Below are positions 10,242 to 11,083 of a stretch of 19,474 nt of DNA, piece after piece. The first letter of the stretch is position 1; each line of letters opens with the position of its first letter. The notes under the pieces were generated by a model. It had not been told where the DNA came from. It did not search any database and was given only the letters and a program-made list of their open reading frames with translations. Made by a program: the position numbers and the translations under genes. This stretch comes from a virus (taxonomy: Duplodnaviria > Heunggongvirae > Uroviricota > Caudoviricetes), in the IMG/VR virus record IMGVR_UViG_2563366999_000007, positions 1-19,474 of that record. The stretch is one strand, 5' to 3'.

Positions 10242-11083
10242 TCAACAAAAACTGGCCACCGCTTTAGAGTTTTTCCAGTATCGGTTTTCCGATTCATTTG
10301 GTGGCAACCCACCGTTATATTCGTGCGGCCTGAGCGCGTTGTAATACCCAACGATATAGTCCGTTATTTCATGGGCAGCATCGCTGAAGTTCATGTAACC
10401 CGTCACCGGTATCCACTCGTTTTTCAGACTCCTGAAGAAGCGCTCCATCGGGCTGTTATCCCAGCAATTTCCTCGTCGACTCAGACTCTGTTTGATCTGG
10501 TAACGCCACAGTAACTGCCGGAACTGCCTGCTTGTATAGTGGCTGCCCTGATCGCTGTGGAACATTACCCCGGCTGGTTTACTGCGGATTTCCCAGGCCA
10601 TTTTCAGCGCTTTGATGGTCAGTCTGCTGTCCGGAGAGAACGACATTGCCCAACCTACCGGTTTCCTTGCAAACAGGTCGAGAACAACGGCAAGGTATGC
10701 CCAACGTTTCCCCGTCCAGATGTACGTCACGTCGCCGCACCATACCTGATTTGGCTCTGTCACTGCGAACTGCCGCCCAAGGTGATTCGGGATAGTGACA
10801 TGTTCACGACCACCTCGTTTATAACGGTGCGCAGGCTCATGAAAGAACTGACCAGTCCCAGTTCTTTCATGAGCCTGCCGGCAAGCCAGCGCCCCATTCT
10901 GAAGCCTATCAGGGTTGCCATTGTGGCGATGCTTCTTGCCCCGGCAGAACCATGGCTGATGTTATGCAACTCAAGTACCTGACTGCGTAATACAGCCCGT
11001 CTGCCGTCTGGTTTTTCAGGACGGTTTTTCCAGTATCTGTAGCTGCTGCGATGAACCCCGAACACATGGCAGAGTGTGACCAC
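10242..11083 (-). pseudogene. IS911 OrfB transposase (DDE/integrase core), frame-disrupted
   Basis: The N-terminal part (...[10 protein letters not shown], frame ending 10760) and the catalytic part (RYKRGG...[15 protein letters not shown]...[10 protein letters not shown]..., 10242..10763) are in different frames. The break coincides with an 18-bp inverted duplication at 10831..10878. Confidence 0.75.

Follow-up and report, generated by a model that had tools for sequence, protein, structure and literature searches.

The IS911-type insertion sequence in the window, i.e. the whole stretch of 19,474 nucleotides of viral DNA that was analysed, has very probably been made a non-autonomous copy by a quasipalindrome template switch that broke its orfB gene, and the lesion is not private to this copy. 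The type of event is well known, being a textbook mutation, and the case is a tidy natural example of it in wild E. coli.

The IS911-type element and its rewritten repeat

From its sequence, the element is taken to be of IS911 type and of the IS3 family by descent, and to be a pseudogene copy. Its ends, target duplication and orfA are located as follows.

10234..11484, minus strand: full-length IS911-type (IS3 family) insertion sequence, 1251 bp (intact copies, 1249 bp)
11458..11484, minus strand: IRL, the left terminal inverted repeat, same as in the intact copy L001
10234..10260, minus strand: IRR, the right terminal inverted repeat, same as in the intact copy L001
10231..10233, unstranded: target-site duplication GAA (plus strand) beside IRR; flanks in the orientation of the IS ...gttattc/IS/ttcctcc...
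11485..11487, unstranded: target-site duplication GAA (plus strand) beside IRL, matching the copy at 10231–10233
11110..11412, minus strand: orfA, intact, 100 aa, Pfam HTH_Tnp_1, ATG at 11412, stop included at 11110
11155..11161, minus strand: A AAA AAG programmed -1 frameshift site, IS positions 324–330, intact

The ends of the element, TGTAGTGG...CCACTACA, are imperfect inverted repeats of the 5'-TG...CA-3' type characteristic of the IS3 family, with 27-nt arms that are 74% complementary. The ends of the IS911 type element begin TGAAG; those of the window element begin TGTAG. The target duplication of 3 bp is of the length that is usual for IS3/IS911 elements (3–4 bp), the duplicated sequence being GAA in the window, GGT around L001 and CTA around thrW copies. 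The arrangement of the genes is likewise that of IS3/IS911, with orfA in frame 1 and the N-terminal part of orfB in frame 3 (-1), joined by the A6G motif. Both orfA and the A AAA AAG site had been described as intact in a preliminary description of this DNA, and both are identical to those of the intact copy. The exact OrfA protein is encoded on at least 1000 contigs, and members of its cluster are named 'transposase InsN for insertion sequence element IS911A'. In one other copy (L004, the thrW copy of strain 377323_2f), a 1-nt deletion at IS column 324 shortens the A-run of the A AAA AAG site from A6 to A5, which may reflect continued decay or be a sequencing error at the homopolymer.

In the window, the insertion splits an ORF on the plus strand (9891–10233 and 11488–11621) that partly overlaps the 3' end of a cI-like repressor gene (9334..9966) and continues downstream of it. 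The split ORF codes for a small protein whose start resembles a signal peptide. In lambdoid phages, this position is often occupied by exclusion or 'moron' genes.

The window IS matches a copy in E. coli Z1323PEC0014 at 100% identity, and intact copies annotated in RefSeq as 'IS3 family transposase, programmed frameshift' at 99.5%. The differences from the intact copy of E. coli RM14723 (L001) are confined to IS columns 639, 640, 642, 643, 646 and 647, which fall in an inverted repeat within orfB. The parts of the repeat are as follows.

10838..10846, minus strand: lesion, 9 nt TCTTTCATG (coding orientation) in place of the 7 nt TGCCAGC of intact copies; net change +2 nt
10831..10850, minus strand: recipient arm, now fully complementary to the donor arm
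10851..10858, minus strand: loop of 8 nt, GGACTGGT in coding orientation, unaltered
10859..10878, minus strand: donor arm, codes GRLMKEL, unaltered as compared with intact copies in the alignments

Read in coding orientation, the intact copies have ...ACTG GGACTGGT CAGT TGCCAGC AGCCTGC..., and in the window TGCCAGC is replaced by TCTTTCATG with the remainder the same. The replacing nonanucleotide is the exact reverse complement of CATGAAAGA in the opposite (upstream) arm, and the arms are thereby complementary at 20 of 20 positions. The ancestral repeat, as preserved in the intact copies, is imperfect and can be written as GCAGGCT-CATGAAAGA-ACTG, the loop, and CAGT-TGCCAGC-AGCCTGC. It is a quasipalindrome with an outer stem of 7 bp (GCAGGCT/AGCCTGC), an inner stem of 4 bp (ACTG/CAGT), a loop of 8 nt, and a mismatched interior of 9 versus 7 nt. 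The predicted fold of the intact sequence has the outer and inner stems flanking the mismatched interior.

The resulting hairpin at 10831–10878 consists of arms 10831–10850 (GCAGGCTCATGAAAGAACTG) and 10859–10878 (CAGTTCTTTCATGAGCCTGC), each of 20 nt, 100% complementary and 8 nt apart. The preliminary description had placed the repeat at the same coordinates and given it 18-nt arms and a 12-nt spacer; the position stands, and the size has to be corrected, since 18/12 describes the outer part of the 20/8 structure. The arm listed first there (10831–10848) is the newly written one, and 10861–10878 is the unchanged donor. The stem of 20 nt is the longest perfect hairpin of the window. When the window was shuffled 60 times with its dinucleotides preserved, the maximum length of a perfect stem with a loop of 3–20 nt was 7–12 nt, usually 8–9 nt. 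As single-stranded DNA, the 57-nt hairpin region has a predicted folding energy of -24.2 kcal/mol (z = -8.55 versus shuffles), as compared with -8.8 kcal/mol (z = 0.09, on a par with shuffled sequence) for the intact sequence. The corresponding values for RNA are -39.6 kcal/mol for the hairpin allele and -20.3 kcal/mol for the intact sequence.

The probability that a random replacement of 8–9 nt would perfect the repeat is about 4^-8. The six altered columns were always found together in every E. coli-type carrier examined, and none of the 19 copies tabulated has a partial form. Alignment to intact copies, proposed beforehand as the check on the preliminary reading, revealed there an imperfect repeat and a continuous orfB frame, and none of the intact copies compared combines a perfect repeat with a continuous orfB. 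The suggestion that the lesion is a template-switch (quasi-palindrome) mutation is thus supported by a rewrite that is exactly templated by the other arm, from which product the mechanism is inferred. Quasipalindromes are known mutational hotspots, and in E. coli template switching involves a stalled polymerase and a nascent strand that uses itself as a template and then returns, by which an imperfect repeat becomes a perfect, or more perfect, one (PMC7202029).

The following course of events is proposed. An IS911-type element would have inserted into the prophage, leaving the GAA target duplication. At the quasipalindrome in orfB, the growing strand, or a polymerase on a folded template, would have been briefly templated on the other arm. 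After TCTTTCATG, the reverse complement of CATGAAAGA, had been written over TGCCAGC, a switch back would have left the perfect 20-bp hairpin and a +2 frameshift.

Frame break and predicted loss of OrfAB

The reading frames affected by the lesion are the following.

10760..11154, minus strand: N-terminal part of orfB in the original frame, which crosses the rewritten arm and ends at a premature stop (10760–10762)
10242..10961, minus strand: displaced DDE/rve reading frame, open from 10961, in a third frame shared neither with orfA nor with the N-terminal part of orfB

The ORF 10760..11083 (minus strand) encodes the expected transposase, then the rewritten arm, and then reaches the stop. The catalytic part (RYKRGG...) lies in another frame that runs down to 10242, in which the remnant ORF 10242..10763 encodes 173 aa. 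The frame relations given in the preliminary description, with orfB running into a stop and the catalytic part continuing out of frame, are therefore correct. The +2 frameshift occurs at about residue 188 of OrfAB, upstream of the DDE/rve domain. When the lesion is repaired in silico, OrfAB has 389 aa and includes the Pfam domains HTH_Tnp_1, rve (residues 218–316), rve_3 and rve_2. The three rve-type domains are found only in the repaired protein, as the window product stops ahead of rve; hence no polypeptide of the window copy combines the HTH with the C-terminal DDE (rve) domain, the combination by which IS3/IS911 transposases are recognised. The predicted frameshift product OrfAB' is a protein of 217 aa that has HTH domains only and ends in an out-of-frame tail of 27 residues. 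After the normal -1 frameshift, this 217-residue fragment of OrfAB, with the DNA-binding region and without the catalytic core, would be what is made.

The catalytic domain would be rejoined by a -1 shift anywhere in a zone of 199 nt (IS 524–725) in which both frames are open. An X XXY YYZ heptamer was looked for in the 199-nt zone and not found, just two GGGG runs being present; recoding is therefore unsupported as a means of rescue, and translational rescue by a second -1 shift was rejected. An intrinsic terminator was also considered for the hairpin and rejected, there being no T-run after it on either strand.

Since orfB is broken, the window copy cannot encode OrfAB. The loss of OrfAB that was originally proposed is thus borne out at the level of domain content, with the rve domain out of frame and no compensating slippery site, and on the same grounds the copy should be unable to supply OrfAB for its own transposition. 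It appears to be a non-autonomous element with intact ends in which OrfA is still encoded. The preliminary description took the IS to be fixed in place by the lesion, which may hold; its ends and target duplication are intact, however, and in principle it could be moved by a helper. The lesion is, moreover, found at several sites, some of which have the intact allele in other genomes. The truncated IS911 protein OrfAB(1-149) efficiently binds IS911 ends (PMC3299598), and on this basis it may be speculated that the 217-aa fragment might bind the ends or interfere with intact copies.

Distribution of the lesion and its possible origins

A related copy covering at least 80% of the query is present in 1953 complete E. 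coli records. The 148 bp around the lesion were matched at 100% in 7 of the 504 matching complete E. coli records, the seven coming from five strains: E2348/69 (three assemblies, NC_011601.1, LT827011.1 and LT903847.1), 382634_2f, 377323_2f, EC12 and Z1323PEC0014. Another 417 records match at 95–99% over the 148 bp, and those inspected have the intact form. RefSeq labels the copies of the carriers as 'frameshifted' pseudogenes. The 107-aa ORF specific to the mutant was retrieved in 51 blocks of a gene-position index, with the exact ORF on 30 contigs, and the exact mutant DNA was found on two metagenome contigs. Among IMG/VR contigs, three have the mutant and 13 the intact form. Variants in the cluster of the mutant ORF show single-residue differences only and no further backgrounds; two of them, P0017, with K for E in the donor arm, and P0021, with S for M in the rewritten arm, break the perfect repeat.

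The mutant allele was not found in phage records. Neither the exact nor a degenerate mutant pattern was found in one-genome-per-species representatives, and plasmids gave no exact match, only a diverged copy from E. albertii (see below). At the insertion site of the window, no IS, intact or mutant, was found in complete E. coli genomes, and none of the 13 intact IMG/VR copies is located there. The window as a whole has no full-length match among complete E. coli genomes, the best one covering 85% of it at 96% identity. Short metagenome/Logan contigs with mixed flanks (L014, L017, L018 and L020) were left out of the counts of independent sites because they are possibly chimeric across the repeat.

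At sites other than that of the window, mutant copies are placed as follows.

intA/ssrA-island site: L005–L008, without target duplication
thrW-island site: L004 and L023, duplication CTA
second thrW-island site, in E2348/69: L003, also split by ISEc21
prophage lysis-region site: L002, without duplication

The mutant copies L002 and L011, at other sites, are 100% identical to the window copy. It is recognised that target duplications can be lost through homologous recombination between IS copies (PMC11708052).

Two of these sites are occupied by either form. Four genomes have the mutant form at the intA site and two the intact one (RM14723 and Z1323HEC0355, the latter scored as intact by identity and length), with identical junctions. 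The intact intA copy of RM14723 (L021) differs from L005 and L006 by the lesion alone across ~4.7 kb. At the thrW CTA site, 377323_2f and Z1323PEC0014 carry the mutant form and five genomes apparently the intact one; of these five, Z1323HEC0355 (L024) was checked and the other four were called by identity. Again the junctions are identical. Two further left junctions, gcctgctcccgg and accagccagtag (L016/L044 and L017/L041, respectively), are each joined to a mutant interior in a short metagenome contig and to an intact one in IMG/VR. They may be further polymorphic sites, and the short contigs could be chimeric.

The lesion occurs on at least three backgrounds as defined by IS positions 182 and 853 (C/G, C/A and T/A), and intact twins are available for the C/G (L001 and L024) and C/A (L021) backgrounds. 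All four combinations of lesion state with G or A at position 853 were seen, which requires recombination or repeated mutation. Thus, because the lesion is present at several sites and on several backgrounds, it must either have been transferred among IS copies, through gene conversion or homologous recombination, or have recurred independently at a hotspot.

Copies within one genome tend to agree. All three copies of Z1323PEC0014 are mutant, each on a different background at positions 182 and 853, and both copies of 377323_2f are mutant; in RM14723 and Z1323HEC0355, both examined copies are intact. This agreement fits gene conversion from copy to copy better than several independent hits per genome, and conversion is therefore favoured for this within-genome pattern. 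In two mutant copies from IMG/VR (L028 and L029, from two isolate genomes), the flanks are swapped, being intA-left/thrW-right in one and thrW-left/intA-right in the other. Such flanks are expected from inversion by recombination between two IS copies or from assembly chimeras; they point to homologous recombination between copies.

Assemblies of E2348/69 differ in the thrW copy, which is intact in CP059840.2 and mutant in NC_011601.1, LT827011.1 and LT903847.1. NC_011601.1 combines the mutant thrW copy with an intact second copy, IS911::ISEc21. In CP059840.2, the thrW copy (L022) keeps T182 and carries the alleles of the second copy over the tract 567–1734. A direct comparison of L003 (NC_011601.1) with L022 (CP059840.2) places the differences in one contiguous tract, at 567, the lesion, 786, 853, 1270 and 1734. 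As this tract equals the other copy of the strain, CP059840.2, as assembly or as stock, is the homogenised one. Either gene conversion really took place in a laboratory stock, or the tract results from erroneous polishing of the repeat.

It is possible, if less likely than not, that mutant copies on different backgrounds arose by independent and identical template switches. A templated product is deterministic, so that independent events would be identical. Consistent with recurrence, the C/G and C/A mutants have intact twins that differ by the lesion alone, the T/A background is mutant as well, and quasipalindromes are hotspots (PMC7202029). Furthermore, the plasmid pEA11_1 of E. albertii includes a copy of IS911::ISEc21 (L027) with the identical 9-nt rewrite. 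The divergence of this copy along its length amounts to 2.6% (23 mismatches over 929 bp), and SNPs lie as close to the lesion as 3 bp upstream (CAGT to CTGT, within the stem) and 29 bp downstream. Its explanation has to be either an independent event or a conversion patch that was very short. Against recurrence, the sharing of state among copies within a genome is a better fit to conversion, and the allele is rare (7/504 matching records). In addition, the reciprocal product of a template switch, with the left arm rewritten and 2 nt lost, was absent from the viral contigs, and the search for an intact twin of the E. albertii background yielded at best pO157 copies at 98.1% identity, which have A636 where the E. 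albertii copy has T636. On balance, the proposal that the orfB quasipalindrome is a natural hotspot of recurrent template switching, with the rewrite arising independently on the C/G, C/A and E. albertii backgrounds, is somewhat doubtful. If it were true, IS911 would have a built-in route to self-inactivation, and the repeat would be a ready-made reporter of template-switch mutagenesis in the wild.

The palindrome of the E. albertii copy (in L027, 1501–1648) has one mismatch, CTGT for CAGT. Together with the mismatches in P0017 and P0021, it may reflect decay of the palindrome after its formation.

The interruption of IS911 by ISEc21 (IS110 family) is always at position 934/935, as in L003 (7445–8378), L022, L025, L026 and L027; among these are two separate copies of E2348/69 and the E. 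albertii plasmid copy with its divergence of 2.6%. A split at the same point is also seen in three copies from IMG/VR (L032, L033 and L037). This pattern suggests sequence-specific targeting of IS911 by ISEc21 or spreading of the composite as a unit.

A single origin followed by mobilisation in trans, with OrfAB from an intact copy moving an already mutated element to the window, is unlikely. The intact ends would permit it, and 3-bp duplications surround mutant copies at the window site (TTC in the orientation of the IS) and the thrW site (CTA). The complete identity of the window copy to L002 and L011 elsewhere is also in keeping with such movement. However, the intA and thrW-CTA sites are mutant or intact depending on the genome and have identical junctions, which shows that there the state changed in place and not by transposition. 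Moreover, 377323_2f, 382634_2f, EC12 and Z1323PEC0014 are without an intact helper copy of this IS type, and this absence from several carrier genomes agrees with immobility there. The IS911 transposase also acts preferentially in cis.

It is very improbable that the palindrome was produced by assembly or sequencing, i.e. that hairpin-prone sequence or the polishing of a multi-copy repeat imitated it. The disagreement of the E2348/69 assemblies at the thrW site, where CP059840.2 is intact against three mutant, and the short metagenome contigs with mixed flanks (L014, L017 and L018) illustrate that repeat interiors can be mis-joined; if the window derives from a short-read assembly, the interior of its IS could be a consensus from another copy. 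However, instead of the artefact that had been named beforehand as the outcome to be feared, many independent assemblies were found to have the allele, the same 9-for-7 change being present in seven complete records of five strains, on 30 contigs, and in metagenome and IMG/VR contigs. Besides, copies in one genome share the lesion and still keep distinct SNPs at positions 182 and 853; thus, the copies were resolved individually.

Equally hard to credit is a functional hairpin, whether a second recoding signal that restores the transposase or a selected regulatory RNA or DNA structure: the RNA hairpin is very stable and a -1 shift in the 199-nt zone would suffice to rejoin the catalytic domain, but the zone offers no slippery heptamer, the hairpin sits on the required shift point and not downstream of one, no T-run follows it on either strand, carriers are rare and annotated as frameshifted pseudogenes, and some are damaged further (the A-run deletion of L004 and the ISEc21 insertions).

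The label 'frameshifted' that RefSeq gives to identical copies elsewhere is now provided with a precise molecular cause. Ancestral and derived alleles are both still extant, in some cases at one and the same insertion site, and they can be used to gauge how often such template switches recur in the wild and how a lesion is transferred between IS copies by gene conversion. A caution also follows: two assemblies of the same strain can disagree about what lies inside a multi-copy IS, as E2348/69 illustrates.

Comparison with known systems

The lesion resembles the quasipalindrome mutations described by the Ripley 1982 model and studied at the E. coli thyA hotspot and in the lacZ QP5/QP6 reporters of the Lovett laboratory, in which an imperfect repeat is likewise converted to a perfect one (PMC7202029). 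As in those cases, clustered changes and an indel appear as one event, the new sequence exactly complements the other arm, and the reading frame is shifted. Unlike them, it is a natural allele in a mobile element, rather than in a reporter or selected marker, and is read from DNA sequence; the laboratory cases are defined by their dependence on replication, with strand bias, stimulation by stalled replication and restraint by 3' exonucleases. At 9 for 7 nt, the corrected interior is also fairly large.

Short-range template switching surveyed in human and yeast (bioRxiv 10.1101/2021.11.26.470150, PMC8604942) similarly involves, in the outline that these sources give, a local inverted copy that homogenises the arms of a repeat in coding sequence. 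As outlined there, those surveys are eukaryotic and based on evolutionary comparison, whereas here a bacterial transposase is inactivated by a change that is polymorphic among near-identical IS copies.

The element itself corresponds to IS911, a copy-out/paste-in transposon, in its length of ~1250 bp, TG...CA ends, 3-bp duplication, orfA/orfB organisation, A6G motif, and HTH_Tnp_1 and rve domains, and differs from it in that orfB is broken. The predicted 217-aa product is comparable to IS911 OrfAB[1-149] (PMC3299598) in that the DNA-binding region is kept and the catalytic domain is absent; as predicted, it would be the longer fragment of the two and would bear an additional 27-residue out-of-frame tail.
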